This document shows positions 159 to 64,000 of a stretch of DNA of 64,000 nt, piece after piece (the first letter of the stretch is position 1; each line of letters begins with the position of its first letter). This DNA is from a virus (lineage: Duplodnaviria; Heunggongvirae; Uroviricota; Caudoviricetes). The translations under genes and the position numbers were made by a program. The stretch is taken from positions 1-64,000 of the IMG/VR virus record IMGVR_UViG_3300046002_005803; one strand, written 5' to 3'. The notes beneath the pieces were generated by a model. It was not told the origin of the DNA and made no database searches. It worked only from the letters and a program-made list of their open reading frames with translations.

Positions 159-716
159 CTATTTATAGGGTTTGGCCCACCTGGTATTGATCACATTCCA
201 GTTTATGATCTTCCACTGTTCGGTTAAATACTTTTTCTTGTCTGAACCGTAGTCCAATATCCAGGCGTGTTCCCATCGGTCAACTAATAACAATATATCA
301 TCGCGTACTTCATGGTTCTTGATCGTTTTAATCTTACCATCAGTCGCTAAGTATACCCAACCCGATCCTTCTAACTTCATAAATTCAGTTTCAAATTCAG
401 ACTTCATGTTATCATAATCACCATAGTGCTTATTGATGAATCCAAACATAGGGCCGTTGGGTTTGTTATTGTTTCTTACTTCACGGAATTGAGGGAATAA
501 GGTGTTATGCAAAAAAGCACCTGCATAGTTGAAATCTCTGTCACCCTCTTTTTTGTTGTAGCGTTCAGCGTAACCGTGGGCTAGTTTCCCGTAGTGTAGA
601 TCCAATGTATCTTTGGATAGAACGGGACTAACTTCAGCCGGAGTGAAGTTTAGTGGTATAATTTCTATGTCTTGCGGTTTACTCTTTTCCTCAAGTAACT
701 GGATTAAATGTCGCAT
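159..716 (-). CDS. sod: Fe/Mn-type superoxide dismutase with an extra ~18-aa N-terminal extension
   Basis: C-terminal DRWEHAWILDYG matches the Fe/Mn SOD signature D-x-W-E-H-A-Y-Y; GSGWVYL resembles FGSGWAWL; N-terminal region has LHYGKLAHGY (SOD H..KHH-like) and LNFTPAEVSP (resembles FELPALPY..LEP). Residues 1-18 (MRHLIQLLEEKSKPQDIE) precede the normal SOD start. Confidence 0.75.
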   Translation of the reverse strand: MRHLIQLLEEKSKPQDIEIIPLNFTPAEVSPVLSKDTLDLHYGKLAHGYAERYNKKEGDRDFNYAGAFLHNTLFPQFREVRNNNKPNGPMFGFINKHYGDYDNMKSEFETEFMKLEGSGWVYLATDGKIKTIKNHEVRDDILLLVDRWEHAWILDYGSDKKKYLTEQWKIINWNVINTRWAKPYK

Positions 717-740: not shown

Positions 741-953
741 TTAAAGACGCCTAATTATTCTTCCCTTAGACAAATCATAAGGTGAAAATTCTACTGAAAC
801 TGTATCACCTAGTAATATTTTAATATCGTTCTTACGCATACGACCACTGATGTAACCAGTAACTACATTACTTAGATTCATCTGTACTTTGAACATGGCA
901 TTGGGTAATACATCAATTACCTTGCCATCCATCTTAATTCCTTCTTCTTTCAT
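741..953 (-). CDS. infA: Translation initiation factor IF-1 (S1-like OB fold)
   Basis: 70 aa, [24 protein letters not shown]...[36 protein letters not shown]. Near-colinear with bacterial IF-1 ([64 protein letters not shown]). Confidence 0.8.
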   Translation of the reverse strand: [70 protein letters not shown]

Positions 954-2027: not shown

Positions 2028-2594
2028 TCAAGTTTTATGGATATACGGTCCATAAATCTTTTCCAGTTCATGGATAGTTTGTGCAGTATTAGCATCTTCA
2101 TGCTTAACCGCGATACCACCTGCGTTGCTCCATGCTTCTAAATACTTACCAAAATCATCTACCAAAACATTTGGTTCACCATCTTGTGTGGCGTATTTGA
2201 ACTTTCCACTGGTGAAAATAGCTTCACCACTTGTACCCGGATTATATTGATCTAACCAGTGTTTTTTACCGTCAATGCTGCTTTGCTTAAACGGGCCTCG
2301 TAACGGAGCAGACAACACAGTATAGGGAATCTTGTTATCTTTCAGCCACATGATAATACGCATTCCACCGGTCAATGGTTTCAAGTCTTTGAAAAATTGA
2401 TAAATTTGTTCTGGACTAGAATTTGCTAATTCGTTGATAGCTTCTTCCGGATTTGGGATTGCTTTATAAGTTGAAACATTGTGTTTTTGTGCCCATGCTC
2501 CAAAAAAATCCGCTTGTACACCGTCCATATCTAGATACAAATGTGGCATTTTCGCTTCAGCCGTATCTTCTAATAATTCTCTTATTTGCATCAT
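2028..2594 (-). CDS. HAD-superfamily 5'(3')-deoxyribonucleotidase
   Basis: N-terminal HLYLDMDGVQADF is the DxDGV(L)aDF motif I of 5'(3')-deoxyribonucleotidases; size of 188 aa is typical. Confidence 0.65.
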   Translation of the reverse strand: MMQIRELLEDTAEAKMPHLYLDMDGVQADFFGAWAQKHNVSTYKAIPNPEEAINELANSSPEQIYQFFKDLKPLTGGMRIIMWLKDNKIPYTVLSAPLRGPFKQSSIDGKKHWLDQYNPGTSGEAIFTSGKFKYATQDGEPNVLVDDFGKYLEAWSNAGGIAVKHEDANTAQTIHELEKIYGPYIHKT

Positions 2595-2714: not shown

Positions 2715-3545
2715 ATGAAACAATTACTCACACTCCTAATATTGCTGTTCTCGGCACTTGTCTATGCACAATCTCCAACTTCAACAGTACCACTTTCCCC
2801 GGATATAGCCGCAATTAAGAAGAAAAATGTCTTGGTTGTAGCAATGACCAAAAAAGATAACCCTCCCTTCTTTAGTGGGGATGAAAAAAACATACGCGGG
2901 CTAGATGTTGAAATTGCTCAACGCATAGGGGTATTACTTGGGGTGCCTGTGGAATTTCGCAGAGATGCAGAAAGTTTTGCCGATGTAGTTGAACAAGTTA
3001 GGTCTGGTGCCGCAGATGTTGCAGTAAGTAAACTGTCAATCACAGGTCCAAGACTACTTACAGTTCGCTTTAGTGATCCGTACATCAAACTCAAGCAAGC
3101 AATGATTATTAATCGCTTATGGCTAAGTCAACACGGTCAAGGCCGAGAAGTGTATGAAGTGATTAGAACATTTAACGGCAAGATATCTTTCATCCGTAAC
3201 AGTAGTTATGATACATTTGCCCGTGCAAATTTCCCCAAAGCAATATATACTCCCGAAGATAGTTGGGATACGATTGTCAATAATGTAACTAGCGGTGCAA
3301 TTGCTGCTGGATATAGAGATGAGTTTGAAATTAAGAAAATCTCATTTGAAAAGCCTAATGCAGCAATTACTACAAAAACTGTAACTATTTCTGACTCTAT
3401 TGATAATATTGCAGTTGCAGTAAATATTAACTCACCCCAACTACTAAGCATAGTAAACTATGTAATTAAAAATGATTACAGTAATATTGACACTAAAAAG
3501 TTAATGGACCGATACAAGGCTGAAAAGTCTCCTGTAAAGAAATAA
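2715..3545 (+). CDS. Periplasmic solute-binding protein (SBP_bac_3 / amino-acid ABC-type binding fold) with signal peptide
   Basis: N-terminal MKQLLTLLILLFSALVYAQS signal peptide. NVLVVAMTKKDNPPFF..GLDVEIAQRIGVLLGVPVEF...GAADVAVSKLSITGPRLLTVRFSDPY matches the family-3 SBP core. Plus strand, divergent from flanking minus-strand genes. Confidence 0.7.
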   Translation: MKQLLTLLILLFSALVYAQSPTSTVPLSPDIAAIKKKNVLVVAMTKKDNPPFFSGDEKNIRGLDVEIAQRIGVLLGVPVEFRRDAESFADVVEQVRSGAADVAVSKLSITGPRLLTVRFSDPYIKLKQAMIINRLWLSQHGQGREVYEVIRTFNGKISFIRNSSYDTFARANFPKAIYTPEDSWDTIVNNVTSGAIAAGYRDEFEIKKISFEKPNAAITTKTVTISDSIDNIAVAVNINSPQLLSIVNYVIKNDYSNIDTKKLMDRYKAEKSPVKK

Positions 3546-3557
3546 TTAGGAAATAAA

Positions 3558-4844
3558 ATGAAATTTAATTTAAAAAACTTCTTATCTAGTCCGTGGACTA
3601 TTTTAGGATCAATCATAATCGGAGTGTTGGCAGGAGTACATGCACCTGCATTAAGTATGAACTTTGAAAGTGTTGGTGGAATTTACATTAGCTTGCTTAA
3701 AGTTGTTGTAGTACCTTTCTTGCTTGCAACAATTTTAGTTGGGGTTGTTAGTCTTTTACAGAAAGAAGGCAGCGCCGCAATGATACGAAAGATTATCATA
3801 GGCTTCATTGCAAGTATGTTCATTGCCGCAGTGATAGGAGTTGGTACTGTTGCTGTTACCGGCAGTGAAATGACACCTGCAAAACAATCTCAACTTGGTG
3901 CAATTGTCAACGATAAAGATTCTGGTAGTGATCTAAACATCACTCTAACAGAACCCATGCCCAAGGCTCCACATATTGATCCAATACTGATGGCACAAAA
4001 GTTTATTCCGGAAAACATCTTTAACACCCTGGCTGCAGGTGAAAGTTTAAAGATTGTTATCTTTTGTTTGATATTTGGTATTGCACTGGGCAATATTAAA
4101 AGTTCTGGACAAGAAATGCTAGTAGATGTATTGAAAAGTGTACAACAGGCCAGCATCAGTATCTTTAAGTTTTTAAACTACTTTCTACCGTTTGCTTTAT
4201 TAGCAATGATCAGCAGTCAAGTTGGTAAAGTTGGAGTTGGCATATTCTTGACCATGGTTGAGTTTATCATGCAACAAGCAATTGGTGGATTCTTAATTAT
4301 TGCACTAGGTACTGTTGTCATCTGGAAGCGTTCAGGTCTTAGCTTGATGACTGTTATTCGTGAAACCAAAGAAACACTAATTGTTGCGGTTAGCTCACGC
4401 AGTAGTTTAGCATGTATCCCATACGCACAAGAAGCATTGCATAAGTTGAAATTTGACAAAACAGGTGTTGAGTTAACTGTTCCGCTGAGTTTTACAGTTA
4501 ATCGTATTGGTAGTATTGCGTATTATGCAATTGCCACAGTGTTTATTGCCAACATTTATGGGGCTCCAATGGGAGTAACCGGGTTGTTAGTTGTATTGTT
4601 TGGTAGTATTCTTGCTGGGCTAGCCAGTGCAGGTACAACAGGTATTCTTACAGTTGCTACCGTAGCAGTTGTTTGTGATTTATTAAAACTTCCAAGTGAA
4701 GCAGTATTGGTATTGTTGATTGCAGTTGATCCATTAATGGACATGATTCGTACAGCAAGCCATGTACACGGTAATGTGGCTGTGACCGCTTTCGTGTGTG
4801 ATAAAGAGCCAGAATATGGACAAGATCAAAGAGTTACTGCTTAG
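3558..4844 (+). CDS. Dicarboxylate/amino-acid:cation symporter (DAACS / GltP-like) integral membrane protein
   Basis: 428 aa, multiple TM segments. C-terminal IAVDPLMDMIRTASHVHGNVAVTAFV matches the conserved DAACS motif (aiDR..DM.RTavNV.GD). Confidence 0.7.
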   Translation: MKFNLKNFLSSPWTILGSIIIGVLAGVHAPALSMNFESVGGIYISLLKVVVVPFLLATILVGVVSLLQKEGSAAMIRKIIIGFIASMFIAAVIGVGTVAVTGSEMTPAKQSQLGAIVNDKDSGSDLNITLTEPMPKAPHIDPILMAQKFIPENIFNTLAAGESLKIVIFCLIFGIALGNIKSSGQEMLVDVLKSVQQASISIFKFLNYFLPFALLAMISSQVGKVGVGIFLTMVEFIMQQAIGGFLIIALGTVVIWKRSGLSLMTVIRETKETLIVAVSSRSSLACIPYAQEALHKLKFDKTGVELTVPLSFTVNRIGSIAYYAIATVFIANIYGAPMGVTGLLVVLFGSILAGLASAGTTGILTVATVAVVCDLLKLPSEAVLVLLIAVDPLMDMIRTASHVHGNVAVTAFVCDKEPEYGQDQRVTA

Positions 4845-5421
4845 TTTATTAAACTACATAGGTGAAAGTCCATTTCGCTTATTCACGGTTATTCTATTAT
4901 GTGTACTGGGATTTGGCGGATGGATCATATACTCAGAAAAAGATGCGTTTATTGCTAGTTATCGGGCTCAACAGGCCATGCCAAAGATGAATGGCCGATA
5001 TGAGGATGCACATAACTTTTTGCTGAAAAACACCACTGCTGAAATGGTGGCTATATTAGAAGTAAATACACTTTCAAATACAAGAAAAATAGCATTTTTA
5101 TCTACCCGCGGCGCCGGTAGAGATAAAAATCACGATGGTGTTAATGTTGGGTTGTTCTCAAAAAATTATGATAACAACACCGATGTGATCAGTTTAATGT
5201 CGGGTAAAATTCCCTGTAGTTCATATCTCAAACCGCAAAGTTTGATTGGATTTGTATATCGTGATTATGGGGTGAATTTCATGTGCAGAATCAGTGTACC
5301 GGCTGAACCCGGTGTTTTCATTGGACAAATAAGTGTGGGTTGGAAAGAACCCCCAGACAACATAGAAGAAATTCAAACCGCTATGATGATTGCTTCTTCA
5401 ATACTGTATAGTAAGAAATGA
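4816..5421 (+). CDS. Hypothetical membrane-anchored protein
   Basis: ORF track starts at 4798, but the in-frame ATG at 4816 (MDKIKELL...) avoids most overlap with the transporter gene. One N-terminal TM helix. Confidence 0.35.
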   Translation: MDKIKELLLSLLNYIGESPFRLFTVILLCVLGFGGWIIYSEKDAFIASYRAQQAMPKMNGRYEDAHNFLLKNTTAEMVAILEVNTLSNTRKIAFLSTRGAGRDKNHDGVNVGLFSKNYDNNTDVISLMSGKIPCSSYLKPQSLIGFVYRDYGVNFMCRISVPAEPGVFIGQISVGWKEPPDNIEEIQTAMMIASSILYSKK

Positions 5422-5476
5422 TACTTCCTTCTATTATCAGTGTTGTGTTACTAGTGATACTAATATTGGTGTTAAT

Positions 5477-6190
5477 ATGAGCAAGCGGCTTGGTGTATTG
5501 GGTGGTATGGGGCCTGCTGCTTCAGCCGAATTTATGGTAAGACTGATTGCTCAAACTCCGGCAAAGCGTGACCAAGACCATATCCCTGCAATTCTTTGGA
5601 GCGACACCACAGTTCCAGACCGTAGCACTAGTATGCGAAATGGTGATGACAAACCGTTACCCTACCTGTTAGCGGGAATACAAGGATTAATATCAACCGG
5701 TTGTAATATAATTGTTATACCATGCAATACTGCACATTTTTGGTTTAACGAAATGGAAAAACAAGCATCGTGGCATGCTAAAATTGCTCATATTGTAGAT
5801 AGTGTTGCAGATGCATTAAGAGACATAAAAGTTACTAATGCTAAAATAGGCGTCATGGGTACACAAGCAACTATTGAGTTGGGTATGTATCAGTACCGTC
5901 TAAATAAGTTAGGTTGGGATTGTATTGCACCGACTAAAGAAGAAATGGATACACTAGTACAGCCTGCCATTGATTTAATTAAAGCCAATCAGATTGCAGA
6001 AGCATATCCAATGTTAATGACTGTAATTCATAGTCTTATTGACAAAGGAGCAAAAGCAGTGGTATTAGGCTGCACTGAAATACCACTGTCTATTAAAGAA
6101 GATACAGTACAGGATACACCAATAATTAACAGCATTGACAGTTTAGTAAAGTCTGTTATTAAAGAATTCAAAAAGGGGAAACTAACATGA
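5477..6190 (+). CDS. Aspartate racemase (Asp/Glu racemase superfamily)
   Basis: MSKRLGVLGGMGPAASAEFMVRLIAQTPAKRDQDHIPAIL...IIVIPCNTAHFWF has a near-identical motif order to archaeal/bacterial aspartate racemase (IGILGGMGPLAT...TPAKRDQEH...IMPCNTAH). The track ORF starts at 5390, but the ATG at 5477 begins the conserved N-terminus. Confidence 0.8.
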   Translation: MSKRLGVLGGMGPAASAEFMVRLIAQTPAKRDQDHIPAILWSDTTVPDRSTSMRNGDDKPLPYLLAGIQGLISTGCNIIVIPCNTAHFWFNEMEKQASWHAKIAHIVDSVADALRDIKVTNAKIGVMGTQATIELGMYQYRLNKLGWDCIAPTKEEMDTLVQPAIDLIKANQIAEAYPMLMTVIHSLIDKGAKAVVLGCTEIPLSIKEDTVQDTPIINSIDSLVKSVIKEFKKGKLT

Positions 6191-6513
6191 ACTTATCATC
6201 GGTTATATTTGTAATCGCAGTATTTGCCTCAGGTGGTGTTTTCGCACAAGCAAAAAGTCCCGAAGAACTTGTGAATGTGAAAATAGCATGTTATGATACT
6301 GATATACTAATTAAAACATTACTTGATACACATAAAGAGTATCCCATACTTATGGGGATAACCGACGATAACGCAAATTCCACTATGGCAGTTTGGATAA
6401 ACTTTAGAACTAAAACATGGACTATAGTTGCTACTAAGGAAAAGGTAAGCTGTGTTATTGTATCAGGTAAGGGAATAGAATTAGTTCCATATAAAAAGGA
6501 ACCAATGATTTGA
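6187..6513 (+). CDS. Small secreted protein (signal peptide), function unknown
   Basis: MNLSSVIFVIAVFASGGVFAQA signal peptide; stop-start overlaps with both neighbours. Confidence 0.4.
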   Translation: MNLSSVIFVIAVFASGGVFAQAKSPEELVNVKIACYDTDILIKTLLDTHKEYPILMGITDDNANSTMAVWINFRTKTWTIVATKEKVSCVIVSGKGIELVPYKKEPMI

Positions 6514-7247
6514 AGAAAACTGTACTATTTTTGCTATTAGCCGCATCCCAATGTGTAACTTATGCACAATCCAATTTAACGGCTCAAGCATGGTTGATTG
6601 CAGATGCTAATGGTGCAATACTTGAGGGTGTGCATACCACTGAGGTTAGGGCTATTGCTAGTATAACTAAATTAATGACAAGTATGGTTGTATTAGATAG
6701 TGGGCAATCATTAACTGAAACAATTCCCAAGAAACTTTACAATAGAAAATTCACCAGACAAGAATTATTCAATTTAGCAATTGTTAAATCAGACAACAAT
6801 GCTGCTAGAATGTTATGCGAATACTATCCTGGTGGAGTTAAAAAATGTGTTGAAGCAATGAATACAAAAGCTAGTTCATTAGCTATGAATAATAGCCGGT
6901 TTACTGACCCAACTGGGTTGTTTAACACCAATGTAAGTACCGCAGAAGATTTAGTTAAATTAGTAATGGCTGCAAAGAATTACCCAATCATCACTAATGC
7001 AAGTAATACATCAATCATTAAATGGAAAATCAATAAGAAGAAATCTGCGGTCTTTCACAATACTAACAGGCTAGTGGGCAAAGGTGTTGATTTTATAGTA
7101 AGTAAAACAGGATGGATAACTGCCAGTGGCGGATGTATTGTTATGATGTTACAGGGTGAGCAGGGTATTAGGACTGTAATCCTATTAGGTAGCAAGAATA
7201 CACAGACACGCATCCCAGAAGCGTATATGTTATCTAAGCTACATTAA
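6510..7247 (+). CDS. Serine-type D-Ala-D-Ala endopeptidase/carboxypeptidase (peptidase S11, PbpG/PBP7-like), secreted
   Basis: Signal peptide, SxxK (ASITKLMTSMVVLD), SxN (VKSDNNAARML) and KTG (VSKTGWITASG) motifs in the canonical order. Strong resemblance to the E. coli PbpG core. Apparent TTG start at 6510. Confidence 0.75.
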   Translation: MKKTVLFLLLAASQCVTYAQSNLTAQAWLIADANGAILEGVHTTEVRAIASITKLMTSMVVLDSGQSLTETIPKKLYNRKFTRQELFNLAIVKSDNNAARMLCEYYPGGVKKCVEAMNTKASSLAMNNSRFTDPTGLFNTNVSTAEDLVKLVMAAKNYPIITNASNTSIIKWKINKKKSAVFHNTNRLVGKGVDFIVSKTGWITASGGCIVMMLQGEQGIRTVILLGSKNTQTRIPEAYMLSKLH

Positions 7248-37991: not shown

Positions 37992-39968
37992 TTAATCACC
38001 GTTTACCCGCTTACCATTTTGATCATATTTATTTAGGTAATCCTCATTGATTGAGGTTTTCAACGCATCGCTGCTTGCACACCGGGTATATAAATTTTCT
38101 GGTCTATTGTCAGTTCGGTCACCGTTAAGATGATCACATTTCAACTGTCTTTTCCAATGCATATTGAATTCATCATCAGTCAATTTACGCTTCAATTTAT
38201 GCAGCGCCAGATCATCTGCTTGTACGCTCCCAGTACGTTTACAGAAGGTAACTCCCTTAGCATCAACTAATCCCAAGTCGGTGCAATGTTGGCAATAGTC
38301 TTTCTTGTTCATTTGATTTTGTGAACCCGGATCGTAACCCTGATCAAAGTGAGGCTTAATCACTTTAGTTACATTATTCTTTTCAACGGGCACATGAGTG
38401 CGAATGATGTTCAGATACAAGTCTAACCCTTCATTAGGGGTGTGCATGTTTTGCCGGAACTGATCAAACGCAACATCTAGCAATGATGAATCATTGGGAA
38501 TGACAATTTTAACAGTATTAACAAACACTACATACTTTGCCAACAGAATTTTTTGTTCAAGTGACACCTCCAATTCAGCAATTTGTCGTGCTTTGTCGGT
38601 GTGATCATATACTCCGCACAATAAACGCTTTGCTCTTGCCATTGTTTGCAATTGCATCAAGCAAACATTCTTTGCGCTAGGATAACCCAAGAATGAAATT
38701 TGTTTCAGTCTAGGTATATCCCAACCCATATTACCTTGCATAACCACACCTAGCAAAAACGGATCTATAATATTAGATTTGTTATTAGCCAAATCAATAA
38801 TGTCATACGCATCATTGCAGTTATTATATTGATTATGGCTTGTTTTAAAATACACTTTTTCGTCTGATGTAACAATACCAATATCTGCTTGCAATGATTT
38901 AGCAAAATTTATGAAATTATTCTTCCGACCACGAGTTTTATACAATGGAATAGACTTACCGGCATCATAACGCCCAAATTTAAAAAACGCACCGGGAATA
39001 ATTTGAACAATGTCAATTTCCATTGCCTTTTTCCAAGTTTCTACATCAATGTCATTGAAAAATTTATCACACTTTTCAACAGTCACTTCATAAGTCAACT
39101 TTGACAATTCATATGTATTCAACAATTCACTCCGGTAAGTAGATGAATTGACATATGGTTTAATAGGTGTCATTTCTGCAAACACACTAGTATTTTTATA
39201 CTCAGGCATAGGGGACAACGATTTAAACACCTTAGCACCCAATGTAGTTCCGCCTTGCTGACTTACAGTAGCAGTACCGGTATAACCTAAGACACGCGAT
39301 CCGGCAACTGCCATACCATTTATAGTAGGCAACCACTTGGGGTCAAAGTTTTTGTTATTACGACCTTGATCATAAAAGATTGTAGTAGCATCAATTGTAC
39401 CCATACCAAAGTGAATTTCATCAACAAAAATATATTGAGGGACTCCTATATTTTTAGGAATAGCCGGATCACGATAGCTTCCCCAGATACGGCCGAGCCA
39501 CTGAGTAGACACAAACCAAACATCAACTACATTTTCCGGTGTTAGTTCATGTAGTTCCCATGACTTTTTAATTTCATCCTTGCAGCGGGCACGAATCGTT
39601 TTGATTTTACCATCATCACACTGAATACGCCTTTCATTCCACTCTGCGTGAAACTTATGGTAAGGACCAGATACACACCCACTATCAGGTGATGTGAACA
39701 CGATAGTTTTCACTGACGAATCACGCTGGATCACAGATGGGATTGTGATTTTAGTAATCACAGTAGATTTGCCTGCGTTAGTCCCTGCAGGTATGATTGT
39801 AATACGATTGTCGTTAGCTAGTTCAGAATCGGCAATAGAAGTAAAAAGATTGTCGTGCAAATATTTCTTTTGCAGCGGCCGCATAAAATCTAAATCAATC
39901 TTCTTTGTTGCAGTTGACAATTTGATTATGTTTGTATTTGTGTTTGTGTTTGGAAACAAATGGCTCAT
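37992..39968 (-). CDS. SF2-type ATPase/helicase with C-terminal zinc-binding HNH endonuclease domain
   Basis: Walker A PAGTNAGKST, DExH-like Walker B IFVDEIHF, C-terminal CQHC...KCDHLNGDRTDNRPENLYTRC (HNH core). Confidence 0.5.
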   Translation of the reverse strand: MSHLFPNTNTNTNIIKLSTATKKIDLDFMRPLQKKYLHDNLFTSIADSELANDNRITIIPAGTNAGKSTVITKITIPSVIQRDSSVKTIVFTSPDSGCVSGPYHKFHAEWNERRIQCDDGKIKTIRARCKDEIKKSWELHELTPENVVDVWFVSTQWLGRIWGSYRDPAIPKNIGVPQYIFVDEIHFGMGTIDATTIFYDQGRNNKNFDPKWLPTINGMAVAGSRVLGYTGTATVSQQGGTTLGAKVFKSLSPMPEYKNTSVFAEMTPIKPYVNSSTYRSELLNTYELSKLTYEVTVEKCDKFFNDIDVETWKKAMEIDIVQIIPGAFFKFGRYDAGKSIPLYKTRGRKNNFINFAKSLQADIGIVTSDEKVYFKTSHNQYNNCNDAYDIIDLANNKSNIIDPFLLGVVMQGNMGWDIPRLKQISFLGYPSAKNVCLMQLQTMARAKRLLCGVYDHTDKARQIAELEVSLEQKILLAKYVVFVNTVKIVIPNDSSLLDVAFDQFRQNMHTPNEGLDLYLNIIRTHVPVEKNNVTKVIKPHFDQGYDPGSQNQMNKKDYCQHCTDLGLVDAKGVTFCKRTGSVQADDLALHKLKRKLTDDEFNMHWKRQLKCDHLNGDRTDNRPENLYTRCASSDALKTSINEDYLNKYDQNGKRVNGD

Positions 39969-40058: not shown

Positions 40059-40529
40059 TTAGCTGACTTCTGTACGCCCGTCACCCAAATCCTTAGCACG
40101 GACCACTCTCATATCAGTAGCTTGTGCCCGATTCTCGGGATCGGCTTGCTGCTGTTCATATAGCTCTAATGCCACATTGCGGCAAACCGTCTGAAACCAC
40201 CGATCGACTATGATAGTATCACTATCATCATCACGCATCTTATACCCTGCACGAATTAAATTTAATACAAATTTGTCATTAAAATCAAGTTCAAACGCAC
40301 CGCTGTTAATATCGTACGGATCAATTTCCATCTTTAAAATATTAACATAGGGAAGACCCTCACTATCTGCTTTTGCCTTGTCAGATATAATAGGTGCTTC
40401 TTTCTTTTCCTTAGGTTTGCGTGGTTTCTTTTCCTTAGTAGTCTTTGGCACCTCTGCTACTGGTTCTGGCTCTGGCTCTGGCTTTTTGCCAAATAGTTTA
40501 TCAAATAATCCCATTTTTATATCTTTCAA
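40059..40529 (-). CDS. Hypothetical protein with an N-terminal PEPEPEP / Lys-rich linker
   Basis: ORF; short GAGCCAGAACCAG tandem repeats. Confidence 0.3.
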   Translation of the reverse strand: MKDIKMGLFDKLFGKKPEPEPEPVAEVPKTTKEKKPRKPKEKKEAPIISDKAKADSEGLPYVNILKMEIDPYDINSGAFELDFNDKFVLNLIRAGYKMRDDDSDTIIVDRWFQTVCRNVALELYEQQQADPENRAQATDMRVVRAKDLGDGRTEVS

Positions 40530-41568
40530 ATAATTTAAAACTAGCTAGGTTTTTTCCTTTACTCTCGGTCATTATATCAAAATTGTCAAGAAATGTCAAT
40601 GCCCAATCGTTAACCGCAGTATTCCAATAGTGGTCGCTATGTGCCCGAAGTTTCTGTTTATTATACCCTGCATTAATCAACGCACCATGATCGGGTAATT
40701 GTGTAGTGGAATGATCTGTGAGTACATTTTCGCGGCTAACACTGTAATGCATAGTAGGGCGAACACCACGCCAACTATCAATAACCCGTTGTACAAGCGT
40801 ATCAGTAGATTGAATATATTCACCTTCACGAATCCAGTTGTGATGGATATCGAGTACCGTAGGCACGAGGTCAGATAACGATAAGCAGTCAGATAGTCCA
40901 TGTGTGTATTCCTCATTTTCTAGTGTAAGTGTGTTTCGGGCTTCTGGGGACAAACGACCATAAACATCTCTGATACCCTGAGGCCCTTTTCTACCAGAAA
41001 TGTGTACATTAACTTTGAAGTCTTGAAATGATTTGCCATAGCCCATCCAACGAACCATGTCACAATGATATTCAAATTCTTCTATACTCTTATTTACTAC
41101 TTCTTCACGGTCACTCGCTAAAACTGTAAATTGTCCGGGGTGCATACTAAGACGAACATCATTGGCTCTAGCTGTTTCACCAATTGGTGCCATCCAGTGT
41201 GCTAGTTTGTTTTGAATATCACTATCTTGCCAGAAGTCTTTCCAGTCATCATGGGTGTAAAAACTCAGCATGTCACTAGTCAGACGAACCATGCGTAGTT
41301 CGGGTTGTAGTGTTGCTACCTTTTTGACTAGATTATGAGTATGTAGAATGTTGCGTTTGGCAACTTCAATTACCTTTTCTTCTGCTACACTACGCTTTTG
41401 CCTTGCGGCCCAAGCCAGAGTAGTACCGCCTGTATTCAATTCAGGTATGCTGGTAATCTCACCCTTCTTGTTTAGTTCTGAAAATTTGCAAGCAAATCCA
41501 ATCCGTTTGATATTATTATTTGTCAAGATAAAAGCCCAAAGCGATAAATAAGATATGTATTGTCGCAT
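40501..41568 (-). CDS. Putative UV-damage endonuclease (UvdE-like TIM-barrel) or other xylose-isomerase-like fold enzyme
   Basis: Motif flow LHPGQF ... HISG ... TLENEEYTH ... LDIHHNWI resembles UvdE; tentative. Confidence 0.35.
   Translation of the reverse strand: MRQYISYLSLWAFILTNNNIKRIGFACKFSELNKKGEITSIPELNTGGTTLAWAARQKRSVAEEKVIEVAKRNILHTHNLVKKVATLQPELRMVRLTSDMLSFYTHDDWKDFWQDSDIQNKLAHWMAPIGETARANDVRLSMHPGQFTVLASDREEVVNKSIEEFEYHCDMVRWMGYGKSFQDFKVNVHISGRKGPQGIRDVYGRLSPEARNTLTLENEEYTHGLSDCLSLSDLVPTVLDIHHNWIREGEYIQSTDTLVQRVIDSWRGVRPTMHYSVSRENVLTDHSTTQLPDHGALINAGYNKQKLRAHSDHYWNTAVNDWALTFLDNFDIMTESKGKNLASFKLFERYKNGII
41543..41550 (+). promoter_or_regulatory. Possible T4-type late promoter element (GATAAATA, compare T4 TATAAATA) upstream of the plus-strand operon
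   Basis: ATAAATA about 55 nt upstream of the ATG at 41606. Confidence 0.25.
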
Positions 41569-41605: not shown

Positions 41606-42796
41606 ATGAGATTTAATGAAATTATATCCGAAGCAGGTAGTCCTGCCCAACAAGCAGCAATTGCAATTGCCATGAAAAAAGCTGGAAAGAAGCCAAAGCA
41701 AGGTGTGGCGGAAGGCAACCTAGAAGAAATTGACCGCAGAGGATTCTTAAGAGGCTTGGGTGCGGCCACTGTGGCAGGTGCGACTAATAATGCAATGGCT
41801 GCTCTAGGGTCACCTACTGCTCCAAGGGCACAGGTTAAAGTGCCGCCTGTGCCACAGTTACCCGCACGAGACGGTGATCTAGGTAATGGCAATAGAGTAA
41901 CAACAAACAAAGATGGTACTAGAACTTATTCTGGCGGGTTTGGTTCATTTACATACAATGCTCAGGGTAAGGCTATAACATATAGTAGTCCTAACTTTAA
42001 TGGATCTGGCCAAACCATCGACTTAACTACTAATCAAATTACGCAAAATTACAATGCAGGACCATTGAAGATTAAACAAACTACCGATGCTACCGGTAAG
42101 CAAGTAGCGGCTGATAAATCATATGATCTTGGTGCAGCAACTGTCAGACAGCAAACCGACGCAACGGGGAAAAATACTAACACAGCTTATGTTCCAATGG
42201 ATGATACAACTCATGTTGTAGATAAACCAACCCTTAGAAAAGCCTTTGCGAAATGGCTGCCGGAAGGCTCTGAGGCAAGTGATAATCTAGTATCCACACT
42301 GAATTCTTTCGGATATTACTCTGACAACAGTAGTGTTTATGCAAATGATGACGGTGATAAGATTGTTCGTCAAGGTTCTAATTGGAAACATCAAGATGGT
42401 CAACGTGGTACTGGTGCTGAAGAATTAGGTAATTTCCTCAGTTCACAAGAAGTTGATGAAGGCGAAACTTGGTCAAAGCATAACAACCCAAGAGCAGGTG
42501 GGATGAGTAAAAAGTCTGTTAGTAGCTATCGCCGCAGTCATCCTGGTAGCAAGATTCAAACAGCGGTAACAACTAAGCCAAGCAAACTTAAAAAAGGTAG
42601 CAAGGCAGCAAAGCGTAGAGCTAGCTTTTGTGCCAGAATGCGTGGAATGAAGAAACATCGTACTGGTGCAAAAACAGCAAGAGATCCAAATAGCAATATA
42701 AATAAAAGTTTGCGTAGATGGCATTGCGAAAGCATTGAAGAACTACATGAATTAGTAATGCTTGCTGAACAATTTATTAGGAATAACAAGAAATGA
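41606..42796 (+). CDS. Capsid-targeted (CTS-bearing) protein with internal Tat-like twin-arginine signal and highly basic C-terminus
   Basis: N-terminal MRFNEIISEAG (CTS-like), then DRRGFLRGLGAATVAGATNNAMAALGSP (S/T-RRxFLK-like motif plus hydrophobic h-region), a Gly/Thr/Asn-rich middle and a KR-rich tail. Confidence 0.5.
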   Translation: MRFNEIISEAGSPAQQAAIAIAMKKAGKKPKQGVAEGNLEEIDRRGFLRGLGAATVAGATNNAMAALGSPTAPRAQVKVPPVPQLPARDGDLGNGNRVTTNKDGTRTYSGGFGSFTYNAQGKAITYSSPNFNGSGQTIDLTTNQITQNYNAGPLKIKQTTDATGKQVAADKSYDLGAATVRQQTDATGKNTNTAYVPMDDTTHVVDKPTLRKAFAKWLPEGSEASDNLVSTLNSFGYYSDNSSVYANDDGDKIVRQGSNWKHQDGQRGTGAEELGNFLSSQEVDEGETWSKHNNPRAGGMSKKSVSSYRRSHPGSKIQTAVTTKPSKLKKGSKAAKRRASFCARMRGMKKHRTGAKTARDPNSNINKSLRRWHCESIEELHELVMLAEQFIRNNKK

Positions 42797-60076: not shown

Positions 60077-60517
60077 TTAATTACACCAACTAGTTTTAGC
60101 TTCACCATAGTATTCTCGGGCAAAACCTTGACTAATTAACATTTGTCTAAGACTTTGTCCATTTAATATTACATCACCCAACACACGCCCGCCATACTTG
60201 TCCCAATCCATGAGAACAATTTGTCTTTTAGTTGCTACTTCAATTGCATGTTTAGTGAAGGCAGTTGCTGCTTGACCTCGTTGCTCCTCACTAGGACATT
60301 TTGCCCTGAAACCTTTTTCCGGTGTATCAACACCAAACACACGAATACTTAATTCTTTCTTTAATGGATCAGGTAAGAACGGTGCGTGAAAGGCTACCGT
60401 ATCACCATCAATAACCCTAGTTATTACAGCATCATATGTTACACCTTCTTTTTGTTTTTGTGCTAATACAACACTAGATAGTATTGTCAATGCTAATAAT
60501 ATTATTATTTTTTTCAT
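60077..60517 (-). CDS. Secreted staphylococcal-nuclease-like (SNase/thermonuclease) protein
   Basis: Signal peptide MKKIIILLALTILSSVVLAQ; VIDGDTV...RVFGVDTPE...DKYGGRVLG...G.AREYY follows the SNase core pattern. Confidence 0.7.
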   Translation of the reverse strand: MKKIIILLALTILSSVVLAQKQKEGVTYDAVITRVIDGDTVAFHAPFLPDPLKKELSIRVFGVDTPEKGFRAKCPSEEQRGQAATAFTKHAIEVATKRQIVLMDWDKYGGRVLGDVILNGQSLRQMLISQGFAREYYGEAKTSWCN

Positions 60518-61890
60518 GTTGATTTAATGCGTTTCTTGTAATCTATAAAGTTTGCGTGTCTATCTTCTAATCCTGATAGTGAAGAATTAATTTTCTTAGT
60601 AACTGCGGCAGTATCATCAAAGTTATTTATCCCCGGTTTAACTCTTGTGTTCCAATACCACAGTGCTACCTTTAACGCTATGTCAGGCCTTGCTGCAAGT
60701 TCAGGTTGTTTGAGTAAGTTTATCTTCAAGGCGTCACCTGCCATACGATAGTTGTCACGACCGGTCAATTGAATATATCCTCTGCCGTGATATCTAGCAC
60801 CATCTCCCACTTGTTTATTACCAAGTATCTTAGCAGTTCTGGGTGAATGTTTAACATCGTATTTTTTAGCAAAATAATCTTTTACCTTTGGTTGTGGCTT
60901 TTCTTGTAACCTACTAAAATTCCAAGTTTCATGTTTCGTCTGAGCTAAAAATTGTGCTAATTCTGATCCCTTCATTCCTTCTTTTTTTGCAGTTTGATAT
61001 AAAACATTTTCTGCTTGTGTATCTACTGTGGGAGATGCTGCTTTAACTACGGGTGTTGCTGCTTTAACTTGTACTTCAGGAGCAGCATCGGGTTGAGTTA
61101 TTTTAGATATTTTAGCTGTTCTAACTGGTTCTACCGGAGAATTATATTGATTAGCAGCACCTAATGCTCCCAATGCCATAGCACCACCAGCGACCCAGTT
61201 CTTCCAATCTTCTTCTAAATCATCTAGTTCAACTAATTGTCTATATGGCTCATCACCGGTCCATCTTGAACCCTGATCCATTGCTTCGCCGACTGCTGGA
61301 TCCCACTTCATGCTCTTACTACCCTTGTGTATAGGAGCGAAGCCTTGCCCCTTGTAGAACTTTGTTAGTTTACTTTGACTTACTTGACCGTGTTGCCAAG
61401 GGAACAATGTTAGTGCAATTCCATCTGCTTGTGCCATGGCTTGCAATTCTTTCATTGCGCGTGAGCCGACCCCTTGACGTAGTGGATATGCTTGAAACCA
61501 TTTTACTTCTACTGCACCTCGTTTGCTGAAACTTGGGGTTAGTTCAAACATTGCAAGCTGCTGAGTGTCACCTTCGCCCCACATCATTACATGATTATTT
61601 TTAAAGATAGTTGGATACTTTTGATAGACCTTTTCAATCCAAGCCTTTGCGGCATCGTTGTTGCTTATTTTGATTGGTTCATCTTCCTTCATTAATTTAC
61701 TAATGCGAGGCTTGAATAACTGTACTTCACCTTTGTTAGTTTTTAGTACAGGTTGATTGTGCTTGTCTTTAGTAAAGCCTTTAATCTCTGCTGGACTATT
61801 CTTAAATTTACCCTTGAGGATTTTATCACCAACTGATAACTTGGGCGGTTGATATGAGGCAGTCTCATTAATAAATTCAATTGCTCTCAT
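60514..61890 (-). CDS. Capsid-targeted (CTS-bearing) fusion protein: GNAT-like acetyltransferase domain plus glycoside-hydrolase family 19 lysozyme/chitinase domain
   Basis: N-terminal MRAIEFINETA; GNAT motif A VKWFQAYPLRQGVGSRAM; GH19 catalytic/signature segments KHETWNF, YHGRGYIQLTGRDNY, VALWYWN. Confidence 0.6.
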   Translation of the reverse strand: MRAIEFINETASYQPPKLSVGDKILKGKFKNSPAEIKGFTKDKHNQPVLKTNKGEVQLFKPRISKLMKEDEPIKISNNDAAKAWIEKVYQKYPTIFKNNHVMMWGEGDTQQLAMFELTPSFSKRGAVEVKWFQAYPLRQGVGSRAMKELQAMAQADGIALTLFPWQHGQVSQSKLTKFYKGQGFAPIHKGSKSMKWDPAVGEAMDQGSRWTGDEPYRQLVELDDLEEDWKNWVAGGAMALGALGAANQYNSPVEPVRTAKISKITQPDAAPEVQVKAATPVVKAASPTVDTQAENVLYQTAKKEGMKGSELAQFLAQTKHETWNFSRLQEKPQPKVKDYFAKKYDVKHSPRTAKILGNKQVGDGARYHGRGYIQLTGRDNYRMAGDALKINLLKQPELAARPDIALKVALWYWNTRVKPGINNFDDTAAVTKKINSSLSGLEDRHANFIDYKKRIKST

Positions 61891-62330
61891 TACTCACGGG
61901 CTTTTTTAAGTGTAGCACGAATCATCCATGCTTTCTTGGCATATAAGTCTTGTAGTTCAGCTAGATAATTGGCAATTCCCTGTGCTTTTTCTTCTGTTGC
62001 AATGTCAAATAATTCAGTTACTAACTTAATCATTTTTTCACAATCAACTAGTAGTTCTTCAAGCATTAATTCAGCACGAGGAATTTTATGTTGTTCTTCA
62101 ATGATACTCAATTCAAGCATTCTGCCTAAGCTGCCTGGAGAATAACTGCCTAAAGTTCTGATATATTCGGCAATAGTATCAATAGTTCCATAGATTTCAT
62201 CATACATTTTATTTAAAAATTTATGATATTGCGGGAAATTGCTTCCTTCGATATTCCAGTGAAATCCGTGAGTTTTTGTATACAGTACAAATGTACTGCC
62301 CAATAGTGTTTTTAAGTTATCTGATAACAT
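61890..62330 (-). CDS. dps: Dps (DNA-binding ferritin-like protein)
   Basis: FVLYTKTHGFHWNIEGSNFPQYHKFLNKMYDEI is the Dps ferroxidase-centre signature (LYqKTHnFHWNvkG.nF..lHe.fee.Yde). Confidence 0.8.
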   Translation of the reverse strand: MLSDNLKTLLGSTFVLYTKTHGFHWNIEGSNFPQYHKFLNKMYDEIYGTIDTIAEYIRTLGSYSPGSLGRMLELSIIEEQHKIPRAELMLEELLVDCEKMIKLVTELFDIATEEKAQGIANYLAELQDLYAKKAWMIRATLKKARE

Positions 62331-62332
62331 TA

Positions 62333-63484
62333 TTATCCTTTAGTTTTCTTTGTGTTGACATTGATGGCTTTACCACTACGCTCTGGATTGGGATCTTCTC
62401 TGCGTTTTCTTGCTGCTGCACTTGCACGACCCTTTTTACCTAAACTGTGTGCTTTACTTTGAGGCAAACATTTTGGTTTACCTTCTCCCGGCTCTCTTGC
62501 ACATGGACCCTTGATATTACCTTTGGTATCCATGCGAACCCACTTTTCTTTATTAAACCAATCATGTAAACTTTCATCCGTTTGATTTATGCCTTCTAGT
62601 ATAGAACTTTCATTCTTACTACTATTACCCCAATTACTTGCACCTTTTTTACGACATTTGACTAATGCACCGCTAGCATAGGCACTTGGCCATACTTTAT
62701 AACGGCTTTTTACTTTATAGTAGCAAGCATCTTTCTTTTCATTCATTATCATTTCACTGAACATTGGTCCATTACAGTGTGGGCAACTATGTTGTTCCTC
62801 CGCCACACCTTGTTCTTTTTGACCTTGCTGTTGCGCCCATTGAGCAATTTTTCCAAAGAGTGTATCAGGAACACCGAGGTCTGTAGCAGCCTTTGGATCG
62901 CTAATATCAACTACGTTAATAGTTCTATCAGCAAGTGGACCGCTTGATTGAATAGGGCCACCTGATGCAATCGTTGCGGCACCTGTGTATTTTTTTTCTG
63001 GATCATTTAGTCTTTGATCTAATCCCAATTGTTTAGCAACATTAGGAGCCACTGGTTTTATGTCAATAAATGATGCTGAGTTACTTGCAGTAGATAAATT
63101 TTGGTTGCGGCGCCAACTGGCTGCAACGTATGTGCCATTGGCTAATCTAACATAAGTGGTCACTGGAGCAAAGATATCTAATTCATTTAACTTGTCCTCC
63201 GACACACCTTGTTCGGTTGTTAGTGTACCAGTGCGTCTTTGTCCGGAACCTTTGAACATATCATTTGTTTCTTCATATGTTCCTGGATAAGGTATACCAA
63301 CTGATTCTTTCTTAACATCATTTGCAAATTGTTTATTAGTTGCTTTTACAATGCCACTAAAACGCTTGTTGCCACGAGCAAAATCTTTTTCTTTATCTGC
63401 TTTACTGGCATCGGCTGCGGCAGCAGTTTTGTATTGTGCTAACTTTTCGTTAGATAGTTCTGTTAAAAAATCTGATGGTTTCAT
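62333..63484 (-). CDS. Hypothetical large basic protein with CTS-like N-terminus (MKPSDFLTEL)
   Basis: 383 aa; Cys cluster CPHCNG; KR-rich C-terminus. Confidence 0.4.
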   Translation of the reverse strand: MKPSDFLTELSNEKLAQYKTAAAADASKADKEKDFARGNKRFSGIVKATNKQFANDVKKESVGIPYPGTYEETNDMFKGSGQRRTGTLTTEQGVSEDKLNELDIFAPVTTYVRLANGTYVAASWRRNQNLSTASNSASFIDIKPVAPNVAKQLGLDQRLNDPEKKYTGAATIASGGPIQSSGPLADRTINVVDISDPKAATDLGVPDTLFGKIAQWAQQQGQKEQGVAEEQHSCPHCNGPMFSEMIMNEKKDACYYKVKSRYKVWPSAYASGALVKCRKKGASNWGNSSKNESSILEGINQTDESLHDWFNKEKWVRMDTKGNIKGPCAREPGEGKPKCLPQSKAHSLGKKGRASAAARKRREDPNPERSGKAINVNTKKTKG

Positions 63485-63485
63485 A

Positions 63486-63974
63486 TTATTTCTTATTCTT
63501 GTTATCTAACATGCCGCGTTTGTTAGCAGTTGCCCAAGCAATGTTCTTAGCGACTTTCTTTGACTTGCCTGCCTTTTCTTCACTCTTTTCAATATGACTA
63601 ACCATACGATCTACTTTGGCACCTTCACTAACTTTTTTCTTAGCAGCATCCCATGCAGCATCAGTCTTTACATTGTATTCTTTACCACCGGCGCCAATAT
63701 CAGCAATTTCGTCCTTGTCGAAATTTGGATATCTGGACCAGCGGGTGGAAGGTGTGTATCCTTTACGGCATAATTTCATCTCTGCGTTAGCTTGTTTGTC
63801 TGACATATAGGGACTTGGAGAGCTGCCTTCCGCCACATCTTTCTCTGGTTCTGTTGGTTTGGGTTTCTTTCTGGGACTATCTAACCAAGGATACTTGGAG
63901 CCTTCCGCTACATCTTGTGTTGCATACTTGGCGTACACCTTGCTATTTTCACCATAGCCATGTCTCCTAGCCAT
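63486..63974 (-). CDS. Hypothetical Lys-rich protein with internal DVAEGS repeats
   Basis: QDVAEGSKYPW / KDVAEGSSPSPY repeat. Confidence 0.35.
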   Translation of the reverse strand: MARRHGYGENSKVYAKYATQDVAEGSKYPWLDSPRKKPKPTEPEKDVAEGSSPSPYMSDKQANAEMKLCRKGYTPSTRWSRYPNFDKDEIADIGAGGKEYNVKTDAAWDAAKKKVSEGAKVDRMVSHIEKSEEKAGKSKKVAKNIAWATANKRGMLDNKNKK

Positions 63975-64000
63975 TTGTTGTAATTGCGCTTGGGTCTTGC

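Follow-up and report, generated by a model that had tools for sequence, protein, structure and literature searches.

The gene at positions 41606-42796 of the window (the whole 64,000-nucleotide stretch of DNA analysed here) is best explained as encoding an accessory protein built like 'beads on a string', from a T4-related jumbo phage that is uncultured and known solely from metagenomes. Five parts make up its 396 aa: a leader, a basic module, a Tat-type (twin-arginine) signal with an all-beta domain, an acidic module and a very basic DUF6321 module, with hydrophobic-x-Glu/Gly joints between them (VAE36/G, LPE220/G and VDE285/G; a slash marks the bond after the glutamate). We propose, with a probability of roughly 0.4, that the protein is packaged and cut at its joints, and that the fragment 37-220, which would then carry the Tat signal first, is exported by the next host.

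The ORF 41606..42796 (+) put forward by an earlier sequence-only reading exists and translates to 396 aa, and the residue string quoted there is exact (D43 to P70, DRRGFLRGLGAATVAGATNNAMAALGSP). Both cleavage-type sites that it named, ISE9/A10 and VAE36/G37, are present in the protein. The first ATG is taken as the start because the 43 residues upstream of the twin arginines are conserved as protein in many homologues; the Tat-type segment is thus not N-terminal in the translation product. An alternative start at M23, which would give an ordinary N-terminal signal, was rejected: dozens of homologues show protein-level conservation of residues 1-22, and the Tat-type modules of relatives lie at residues 100-774, several of them without a nearby Met. 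Some copies of the module have a Met right before the motif (MNRRGFL, MDEDLSRRGFL), which hints that the module arose through fusions to genes whose signals were formerly N-terminal.

Table 1. Positions in the window of the gene, its modules and joints, and other genes.
Feature	Position	Strand	Description
Whole gene	41606..42796	+	396 aa plus stop; opens a three-gene array of leader-bearing genes
Leader, aa 1-9	41606..41632	+	MRFNEIISE/A; T4 CTS-like, ends I-S-E
Small basic module, aa 10-36	41633..41713	+	AGSPAQQAAIAIAMKKAGKKPK; closes at joint QGVAE36/G37
Tat-type signal module, aa 37-66	41714..41803	+	n-region GNLEEID, motif DRRGFLR, hydrophobic core GLGAATVAGATNN, AMA end
Twin arginines R44-R45	41735-41740	+	
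Signal-peptidase-type site A63-M64-A65/A66	41792-41800	+	
Cargo, all-beta domain, aa ~76-205	41831..42220	+	Starts QVKVPPVPQLPARDG; joined to the Tat-type signal without a joint
Joint L218-P219-E220/G221	42257..42265	+	Aligns to (Q)GVAE/GSESSDNL of homologues
Acidic module, aa 221-285	42266..42460	+	GSEASDNLVSTLNSFGYYSDN..., pI 4.2; closes at joint V283-D284-E285/G286
DUF6321 domain, aa 296-372	42491..42721	+	Pfam PF19846
C-terminal helix, aa 373-396	42722..42793	+	ESIEELHELVMLAEQFIRNNKK; AlphaFold helix 363-393; kept in close homologues
Second array gene, 551 aa	42793..44448	+	Leader MNFKELLEG; GP88 domain; start overlaps the first gene's stop (ATGA)
Third array gene, 298 aa	44448..45344	+	Leader MRATEFIAE/A; EFIAE as in the T4 CTS, same position
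789-aa gene	63486-63974		End portion of the gene

The segment DRRGFLRGLGAATVAGATNNAMA/A (residues 43-66) is supported as a probable Tat-type signal by one of two curated HMMs and by its features. It scores 19.0 bits against the NCBI model TIGR01409 (TAT_signal_seq), exceeding the cut-off of 16.7, and 18.4 bits against Pfam TAT_signal (PF10518), short of the gathering cut-off of 22.7. The RR.F[LIV] motif occurs once among the window's 146 ORFs. Using an HMM built in this analysis from 99 bacterial N-terminal Tat signals, we found a sole match among 585 six-frame segments of the window, namely ORF 41606-42796 with 30.4 bits (runner-up 4.8). A chance match was rejected on the basis of the TIGR01409 score, the single motif occurrence, this unique HMM match and the scores of relatives. 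The polar-R-R-x-F-L-K motif, defined by its consecutive arginines (PMC7317946), is present as D43-R44-R45-G46-F47-L48-R49 and is followed by an uncharged stretch of 24 residues. The segment has an AxA end, A63-M64-A65/A66, and then G68-S69-P70; the c-region of this copy has no basic 'Sec-avoidance' residue. With RR at 44-45, the signal would become N-terminal only after cleavage at E36 or E41. Its AlphaFold pLDDT is below 50, i.e. it lies outside any fold. The sequence-only reading had described an RRxFL signal with a typical h-region; the motif stands and has its curated TIGR01409 match, but the h-region is weak. Its best 12-residue Kyte-Doolittle mean is 1.05, compared with 1.67 +/- 0.28 in bacterial Tat signals (more than 2 SD lower), and it is the weakest among the phage copies, including as it does T55, T60, N61 and N62. 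The best 12-mers of the window's Sec signals have means of 2.4-2.9; the core of this copy thus has the length (at least 12 residues) and the lower-than-Sec hydrophobicity of a Tat signal, at the weak end. In the GH19 protein of the window, an internal hydrophobic segment rich in Gly and Ala lacks RR.

In metagenomic relatives, the module RRGFL[KR]G.GAA...AxA is found at residue positions from 13 to 774, always directly after the leader or a Glu-ending linker or joint. It is joined straight to its cargo (the domain downstream), and a QGVAEG-type joint never lies between the two. TIGR01409 was passed by 9/10 relatives tested, with modules at internal positions 37-283. An alignment of 11 diverged copies shows RRGFL.G.G.A to be invariant and the hydrophobic core variable, and most relatives have a module end of the AxA type (ANA, ALA, AMA, AQA or ARA). 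Conversely, a profile made from the phage modules picks up authentic Tat signals of bacteria, such as those of formate dehydrogenase and of the NCBI 'twin-arginine translocation signal domain-containing protein'. More than ten different kinds of cargo are fused to the module. Three families among them are cell-envelope cargos: LysM+SLT, the TonB/TolA C-terminal domain (TonB_2/TonB_C/TolA match of 66.8 bits) and peptidase M48. The LysM+SLT version (relative L026, Tat-like + LysM + SLT) is located in an array of leader genes adjoining tail-fibre genes, and no other lysis-type gene is apparent among its neighbours. One relative's cargo is HD-like, with a match below threshold, and would as such be cytoplasmic. 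The signal slot may also be filled otherwise: in P0227 the beta cargo of the 396-aa protein has a Sec-like signal in front of it, and L017 and L021 have GWKSALGAAALAG...AxA. At the level of sequence, this is a Tat-type signal module that is both conserved and portable, standing before many cargos, envelope-acting domains included. Its presence ahead of such domains in relatives suggests that virion-delivered proteins may be re-exported by the host.

T4-type prohead proteases cut after Glu, with a hydrophobic residue at P3, and act inside proheads. The T4 capsid targeting sequence (CTS) is MKTYQEFIAE, and the internal proteins (IPs) receive a single cut beside it (PMC8442874); in T4 Alt the cleavage sites are ITE-6 and LTE-619 (PMC5694885). 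The CTS-like N-terminus noticed from the sequence alone is indeed there: as in T4 IPI/IPII/IPIII and Alt, a leader of about 10 residues with a hydrophobic-x-Glu end opens the 396-aa protein (MRFNEIISE/A) and its operon partner (MRATEFIAE/A). The consensus in many homologues is M[KR][IF][TN][DE][IF]I[ST]EA. Leader-bearing paralogues are present in the window and in its flanks, and leaders are confined to accessory proteins, one of which has a GNAT and a weak Kinase-PolyVal match. All four h-x-E[GA] sites of the 396-aa protein fall at module joints defined by homology (0.53 expected in shuffles; four reached by 0/2000 shuffles). In 120 homologues there are 59 occurrences of QGVAEG and 332 linker-like tetrapeptides, compared with 30.7 +/- 5.8 in shuffles (~11-fold enrichment), and the small basic module (aa 10-36) is also found N-terminal, internal or C-terminal in homologues. 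AlphaFold gives a pLDDT below 50 at the joints aa 36/37 and aa 285/286 (residues 282-297), and places the joint aa 220/221 inside a stretch of about 60 pLDDT flanked by structured helices.

A real Tat signal might instead be used in the producing cell, the protein being made during infection and not injected. The signal would then work N-terminally extended or internal, by loop insertion, or after a cut by a cytoplasmic phage protease, and would take the beta domain (in relatives, the TonB-like, SLT or M48 domain) into the infected cell's periplasm, where it might serve superinfection exclusion or lysis, for instance; the conserved leader would be a cassette boundary or an n-region rather than a capsid signal. 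We hold this to be rather unlikely. The leader is fused directly to the module in some relatives (MRASEFIAEDLSRRGFL..., RR at residues 12-20), which could be ordinary N-terminal Tat signals requiring neither cleavage nor injection, and actinobacterial Rieske proteins provide known cases of Tat signals away from the N-terminus (PMC7317946). However, modules that lie as far in as residues 300-774, in proteins of 366 to 1067 aa, would be hard to use uncleaved, the joints show the P1-Glu, P3-hydrophobic pattern of T4-type prohead proteases, which are active inside proheads, and the leader is very close to the T4 CTS. A special Tat module would moreover be left unexplained, because the ordinary exported proteins of this phage have classical Sec signals.

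The body and tail of the protein had been said to give no functional clue; both turn out to be recognisable families, although of unknown function. What was called a 'Gly/Thr/Asn-rich body' belongs to a conserved family of all-beta domains that forms at least 137 clusters at 50% identity, and the 'very basic tail' is Pfam DUF6321 (PF19846; 38.4 bits over residues 296-372, exceeding the gathering score of 28.5), the fragment 286-396 having a pI of 11.3. The DUF6321 part matches eight PHROG families, all of unknown function, and with tblastn 383 cyanophage and pelagiphage records match the 396-aa protein, in this part only; the P-TIM68 homologue (DUF6321) has no leader. The acidic module is common to many otherwise different proteins (P0020-P0036). 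Most of the 153 relatives with the beta cargo have it without any hydrophobic segment, and the beta cargo therefore does not need the periplasm. This absence of the signal from most cargo relatives would suit a vestigial copy, in which module shuffling put a Tat-type module before a beta domain, where it is now decaying and inactive, and the protein is cytoplasmic or retained in the head. The weak core would suit it too, as would the TIGR01409 score, the second lowest of the 10 copies that reach the cut-off (range 17.4-27.2). We nevertheless consider decay improbable, since the curated cut-off is still passed, the 96%-identical relatives P0121 and P0005 keep the module with hardly a change although their upstream modules differ, and the identical protein (P0001) occurs on 21 metagenome contigs, with the same neighbours.

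Other relatives have the beta cargo behind Gly-zipper transmembrane segments, in large proteins resembling tape measures (P0218, P0240 and P0251), or behind transmembrane helices (P0228 and P0246). We may wonder whether the segment is rather a Tat-independent membrane segment of an ejection protein, which, weakly hydrophobic and Gly/Ala-rich, would form the new N-terminus once the head has matured and would enter the host membrane during genome delivery, RR being a positive-inside flank only. The RR-less segment of the GH19 protein points the same way, as does gp47 of the Salmonella giant phage SPN3US, an ejection protein that, once processed, has a transmembrane helix at the mature N-terminus. 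We give this reading little probability: diverged copies all retain the full Tat consensus (polar-R-R-G-F-L-K/R-G), rather than just charge and hydrophobicity, and this consensus scores with curated Tat models; AxA ends are typical for cleaved signals, and the core, with its Kyte-Doolittle mean of 1.05, lacks the length and hydrophobicity of a stable transmembrane helix.

The packaging and re-export that we favour could proceed as follows. The leader would bring the 396-aa protein into the prohead, where a T4-type prohead protease would cut at ISE9, VAE36 (perhaps LEE41 too), LPE220 and VDE285. The fragment 37-220 would then start with the Tat signal, and the basic DUF6321 fragment would remain with the DNA, like T4 internal proteins. 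As long as the precursor is uncut the signal would be masked, so that the cell making the protein would not export it. Once injected into the next host, the ready-made, refolded fragment 37-220 would be recognised by TatBC and exported on proton-motive force alone, and signal peptidase would release it at AMA65/A66. A Tat rather than a Sec signal fits this scheme because the protein would arrive fully synthesised and folded.

The DNA polymerase of the phage is of the T4 type. No head genes, including those for a prohead protease and the major capsid protein, were found in the 84 kb read (the window plus 10 kb on each side); the 10 kb beyond each window end hold further leader genes, tail-fibre-like genes and one ClpB-like gene. 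The T4 late promoter TATAAATA is not enriched (4 found versus 7.5 expected), and no tRNAs were found. No near-identical DNA exists in 50,697 phage genomes, and tblastn with the leader, Tat and cargo part, or with the Tat and cargo part of a relative, gave no match even at E = 1. Our literature search found no paper in which twin-arginine occurs together with either capsid targeting sequence or ejection protein, and no mention of DUF6321; the arrangement of leader, joints and Tat signal was found in no paper and in none of the deposited phage genomes searched.

Several known systems can be compared with this one. The T4 internal proteins likewise have basic modules and belong to arrays of hypervariable accessory genes, and both phages have a replication module of the T4 type. 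Unlike them, which are cut once and are cytoplasmic, the 396-aa protein has several joints between shuffled modules, one of which is an export signal, and is a candidate virion protein only. Sec-exported endolysins (signal-peptide or SAR) have N-terminal Sec-type signals and are active in the producing cell. There too, a host translocase signal brings a phage peptidoglycan hydrolase to the periplasm, as may be the case in L026, whereas gene 41606-42796 has no muralytic domain. Bacterial Tat signals (S-R-R-x-F-L-K; TIGR01409, PF10518; for example TIGR02811, the formate-dehydrogenase-region TAT target) have the same RR, F-L-K/R, Gly/Ala-rich core of at least 12 uncharged residues, AxA and below-Sec hydrophobicity; the phage segment differs in being non-N-terminal (RR 44-45; in relatives up to 774), phage-encoded and flanked by a protease-type joint. 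In SPN3US gp47, which is thought to enter the host, prohead-protease processing likewise puts a hydrophobic membrane segment at the mature N-terminus (PMC5694885), but this is a predicted transmembrane helix without Tat consensus, after a propeptide of 79-111 aa, in a phiKZ-like phage whose protease motif is A-x-E. Actinobacterial Rieske iron-sulphur proteins have a non-N-terminal Tat signal too, their last transmembrane helix being inserted by Tat (PMC7317946); in the Rieske proteins, however, Sec-inserted helices precede an uncleaved signal in a host housekeeping protein. Finally, the polyvalent proteins of phages and conjugative elements are also multi-module effectors; they are believed to be packaged and injected, and their processing has been proposed (Iyer et al., 2017, PMC5512222); signal peptide, twin-arginine and periplasm all go unmentioned in that paper. 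Relatives of 1055-1067 aa have polyvalent-like traits (ParB-like, deaminase-like and zincin-like motifs, by eye only), as does a neighbour gene with its weak Kinase-PolyVal match. The modules here are, unlike those of polyvalent proteins, small, with uniform trans-protease-type joints, and some have export signals. Polyvalent proteins have 2-15 catalogued effector domains per polypeptide, which fits the larger relatives and a neighbouring gene better than the 396-aa protein, in which DUF6321 and the Tat signal are the only parts recognised.

More tentatively still, such 'masked pre-proteins' may be a general strategy of uncultured T4-related jumbo phages. Mosaic polyproteins would be packaged and their Glu joints cut by the prohead protease, releasing Tat-type (and some Sec-like) pre-proteins that would be injected and exported by host translocases. 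The cargos, i.e. TonB/TolA-like decoys, peptidoglycan hydrolases, M48 proteases and this beta domain, could remodel the envelope before phage gene expression, with superinfection exclusion as one possible purpose. Phage proteins that enter together with the DNA are known to act in the cytoplasm, T4 IPI and Alt among them. To our knowledge, host export signals on phage proteins are known only where the proteins are made during infection, and Tat is the only exporter we know of that takes finished, folded proteins without ATP. Even if export takes place in the producing cell only, joint-delimited, shuffled 'signal plus cargo' cassettes would be an undescribed build of phage accessory proteins, and the combination of leader, Glu joints and signal module would give a sequence rule for finding such effectors in metagenomes. 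If the proposal is true, a signal that stays silent in the precursor until head maturation exposes it, and then works in the next host, would constitute a new route for virion proteins to the periplasm, a new use for the Tat pathway and an additional layer of immediate-early host takeover.

The ORF proposed in the sequence-only reading exists and translates into 396 residues. Residues 43-70, DRRGFLRGLGAATVAGATNNAMAALGSP, are identical to the string reported there, with R44-R45 (nt 41735-41740) within the twin-arginine motif D-R-R-G-F-L-R; the RR.F[LIV] pattern occurs a single time among the 146 ORFs of the window. TIGR01409, the curated Tat-signal model of NCBI and our independent test of Tat identity, recognizes the segment (19.0 bits, cut-off 16.7), whereas Pfam TAT_signal leaves it just below the cut-off (18.4 versus 22.7 bits); the curated scores are thus split, and E-values for such short, low-complexity signal models are rough. 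A Tat-independent membrane segment, comparable to the transmembrane helix at the N-terminus of SPN3US gp47 after processing, appears to us rather improbable. Our own bacterial-Tat HMM matches the studied ORF alone among 585 six-frame segments of the window (30.4 bits; next best 4.8), but since it was made from 99 bacterial N-terminal Tat signals that the phage modules themselves had pulled out, it measures how unique the segment is in the window and not Tat identity.

We compared the segment with Tat signals as defined by Palmer and Stansfeld 2020 (PMC7317946). The motif is followed by an uncharged stretch of 24 residues and a signal-peptidase-type site, A63-M64-A65|A66. G68-S69-P70 could provide a helix-destabilising residue, but sits after the AMA65|A66 site and not at the end of the core. 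Unlike Tat signal peptides, the segment is not N-terminal unless cleavage occurs. Its weak point is low hydrophobicity: the highest Kyte-Doolittle mean over 12 residues is 1.05, compared with 1.67 +/- 0.28 for bacterial Tat signals and 1.2-1.6 for the other phage copies (2.4-2.9 for the Sec signals of the window). The RRxFL motif first noticed stands, but the h-region is less hydrophobic than the typical one claimed.

The homologues show a protein built from a row of independently shuffled modules, with a nearly uniform joint (typically QGVAE|G) between them. The tetrapeptide [GDSE][VMLI][ATS]E occurs 332 times in 120 homologues versus 30.7 +/- 5.8 times in shuffles, and QGVAEG 59 times in the same set. 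The studied protein has four hydrophobic-x-Glu|Gly/Ala sites (ISE9|A, VAE36|G, LPE220|G and VDE285|G), where shuffling leads one to expect 0.53 and reached four in 0 of 2000 trials. All four coincide exactly with module boundaries placed by homology, including the two sites, ISE|A and VAE|G, already picked out from the sequence. The leader end and the internal joints follow one common pattern, P1 Glu with a hydrophobic P3, as do T4 gp21 sites; T4 internal proteins are cut once beside their capsid targeting sequence, MKTYQEFIAE (PMC8442874), and T4 Alt at ITE-6 and LTE-619 (PMC5694885). AlphaFold models the full-length protein as separate folded beads, with pLDDT below 50 at residues 1-11, 31-84 and 282-297 (the leader, the joints 36/37 and 285/286, and the signal), while the 220/221 joint lies within a stretch of about 60. 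The basic tail, thought to give no functional clue, belongs to a recognized family, DUF6321, of which the protein is thus a member. Otherwise different mosaic proteins (P0024, P0025, P0027, P0029, P0033, the L030 ORF and L031 2162-5227) share the C-terminal motif ...S[TA]DYL[EPD]EK, which may be a C-terminal signal or a cleavage remnant.

The signal module is portable. Its copies in relatives share an invariant RRGFL.G.G.A, differ in their Gly/Ala core and mostly end in AxA, and a profile made from them pulls out authentic bacterial Tat signals. Of ten relatives tested, nine pass TIGR01409 and have the module at positions 37-283; P0005, the tenth, has it at residue 305. Scanning IMG/VR revealed the module at 19 loci and in 15 different ORFs, where its position ranges from residue 13 to residue 774; the RR invariance is there by construction, as the pattern contained RRGFL, and the unbiased set is that of the homologues found through other modules. 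Every copy starts directly behind either the leader or a Glu joint (VAE|GNLEEIDRR, VDE|DLTRR, IAE|DLSRR). The QGVAEG-type joint typical of other boundaries never separates the module from the next domain, so that signal and cargo form one unit. The cargos are numerous (more than ten in total) and unrelated, and those recognized by Pfam are for the most part envelope proteins: TonB_2 (66.8 bits), TonB_C and TolA C-terminal in L013 (IMG/VR 3300042566_001181), LysM plus SLT in L024, L025 and L026 (L024 and L026 from 3300025417; a 1067-aa polyvalent protein in L024, 294 aa in L026), and Peptidase_M48 in L028 (3300027749_002876). An exception is one HD-like cargo, which scores below threshold. In L026 the LysM-SLT gene lies in the leader-gene array adjoining tail-fibre-like genes, the same position as in the studied contig, and no further lysis-type gene is apparent among its neighbours.

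What sequence analysis shows is a Tat-type signal recognized by a curated model, its conservation as a module associated with envelope cargos, and the leader and Glu-joint architecture. We infer that the leader would carry the protein into the prohead and that the prohead protease would cleave at the joints. Fragment 37-220 (or 42-220) would now begin with the signal; once injected, it would be recognized by the host TatBC, exported and cut by signal peptidase at A65|A66, the basic DUF6321 piece remaining with the DNA. We give this reading as a whole a probability of roughly 0.4. It would explain why the signal is internal (masked in the producing cell), why it has a joint on one side only, and why it is of the Tat and not the Sec type (the passenger would arrive fully made). 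The short-leader versions, with RR at residues 12-20, speak for a signal working in the producing cell, with no injection, a reading that we consider unlikely.

Two further signal-like modules occupy this slot: in P0227, a textbook Sec-like signal placed between the leader and the beta cargo that the studied protein has too, and 'E|GWKSALGAAALAG...AxA' in loci L017 and L021. The GH19 protein of the window has an internal hydrophobic segment, rich in Gly/Ala and lacking RR (about residues 243-258, WVAGGAMALGALGAA), before its muralytic domain; this layout, a signal-like segment and then an envelope-acting domain, is that of the Tat-module proteins. Most of 153 relatives have the beta cargo straight behind a leader and no hydrophobic segment before it; a smaller number have it after a Tat-like signal, a Sec-like signal, a transmembrane helix or the Gly-zipper membrane region of large tape-measure-like proteins. 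The periplasm would thus be a recurrent but not an obligatory destination of this domain. This usually signal-less cargo and the weak hydrophobic core would agree with a decaying, functionless copy in the studied gene, an explanation that we regard as having little probability.

The window (GC content 38%) comes from an uncultured jumbo phage. Its family B DNA polymerase is of the T4 type and shares 42-48% identity with the enzymes of Sinorhizobium phage Phosso, Vibrio phage 2.275.O, Atu_ph07 and the RaK2 group. No near-identical DNA was found among 50,697 deposited phage genomes, and no phage head genes within the window and the flanks read. Identical copies of the protein, with unchanged neighbours, are carried by 21 JGI metagenome contigs, the largest of 234,546 bp. 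The gene heads a trio of + strand genes with overlapping stops and starts and the leaders MRFNEIISEA, MNFKELLEGA and MRATEFIAEA. Similar leaders are found in the GH19 protein and two mosaic proteins of the window, more loosely in SOD, NT5C and a 509-aa protein, in four successive genes past the left end (MRSNEFITEG, MRANDFISEN, MRAKEFLNEL and MRAKEFINEE, the last encoding 609 aa with GNAT and a weak Kinase-PolyVal match) and in genes of 789 and 1021 aa past the right end; they are absent from replication genes. The 789-aa polyprotein has many QGVAEG and DVAEG joints, repeated 'GSKYPWLD.PRK' units and one module in common with P0121, which is related to the studied protein but longer. The 383-aa mosaic protein combines a module, LNELDIFAPVTTYVRLANG..., also present in P0005, P0121 and other relatives, with a DUF5872-like zinc-ribbon part and a basic C-terminal module that cyanophage P-TIM68 has as well.

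Features of the studied protein, the window and the loci read
Feature	Location	Remarks
Studied gene	window 41606-42796 (+)	
Predicted leader	aa 1-9	
Predicted basic AQQAAIAIAMKKAGKK module	aa 10-36	
Predicted Tat-type signal + beta domain	aa 37-220	19.4 kDa
Predicted acidic module	aa 221-285	pI 4.2
Predicted DUF6321 + helix	aa 286-396	pI 11.3
Leader-gene quartet	L009 10563-14426	just to the left of position 1 of the window; adjoins tail-fibre-like genes
Fe/Mn superoxide dismutase (SOD)	window 159-716 (-)	leader-like N-terminal extension
IF1-like gene, small	window about 741-953 (-)	Pfam eIF-1a; precomputed Pfam tables, L009/L031
NT5C nucleotidase	window 2028-2594 (-)	leader-like N-terminal extension
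Host-like gene block	window 2715-7247 (+)	SBP_bac_3 (periplasmic solute-binding protein with Sec signal), sodium:dicarboxylate symporter family protein, Asp/Glu racemase, Peptidase_S11 (D-Ala-D-Ala carboxypeptidase)
658-aa protein	window 37992-39968 (-)	C-terminal HNH motif; past UvdE gene
UvdE UV-damage endonuclease	window 40501-41568 (-)	127 bits; divergent from studied gene
Staphylococcal-nuclease-like gene	window 60077-60517 (-)	Sec signal; precomputed Pfam tables, L009/L031
GH19 protein, 458 aa	window 60514-61890 (-)	leader MRAIEFINE; Glyco_hydro_19 muralytic domain, 55.1 bits
Ferritin-like gene	window 61890-62330 (-)	precomputed Pfam tables, L009/L031
383-aa mosaic protein	window 62333-63484 (-)	leader MKPSDFLTE
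789-aa mosaic polyprotein	window 63486-64000 (-), C-terminal end; rest in L031 7630-9999	leader MRFNQIVEN...
Second signal-like module, recurrent	L017 ORF 2077-3978; L021 ORF 2716-4203	'E|GWKSALG[AS]AALAG[AT]MAMG...AxA'; straight after a Glu joint; without twin arginine

No paper was found in the literature that mentions DUF6321 or ties twin-arginine signals to capsid targeting or ejection proteins; the polyvalent-protein survey makes no mention of export signals, and leader, signal and cargo have no match among deposited phage genomes. The studied protein is not one of the catalogued polyvalent proteins, although its larger relatives resemble them. By its sequence, it has a leader like that of T4-type internal proteins, and can be likened to a CTS-led internal protein of T4 and a bacterial Tat pre-protein in one. 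Each part is known; what is new is their combination. On a less conservative reading, which we put forward tentatively and with some doubt, masked pre-proteins may be a general strategy.
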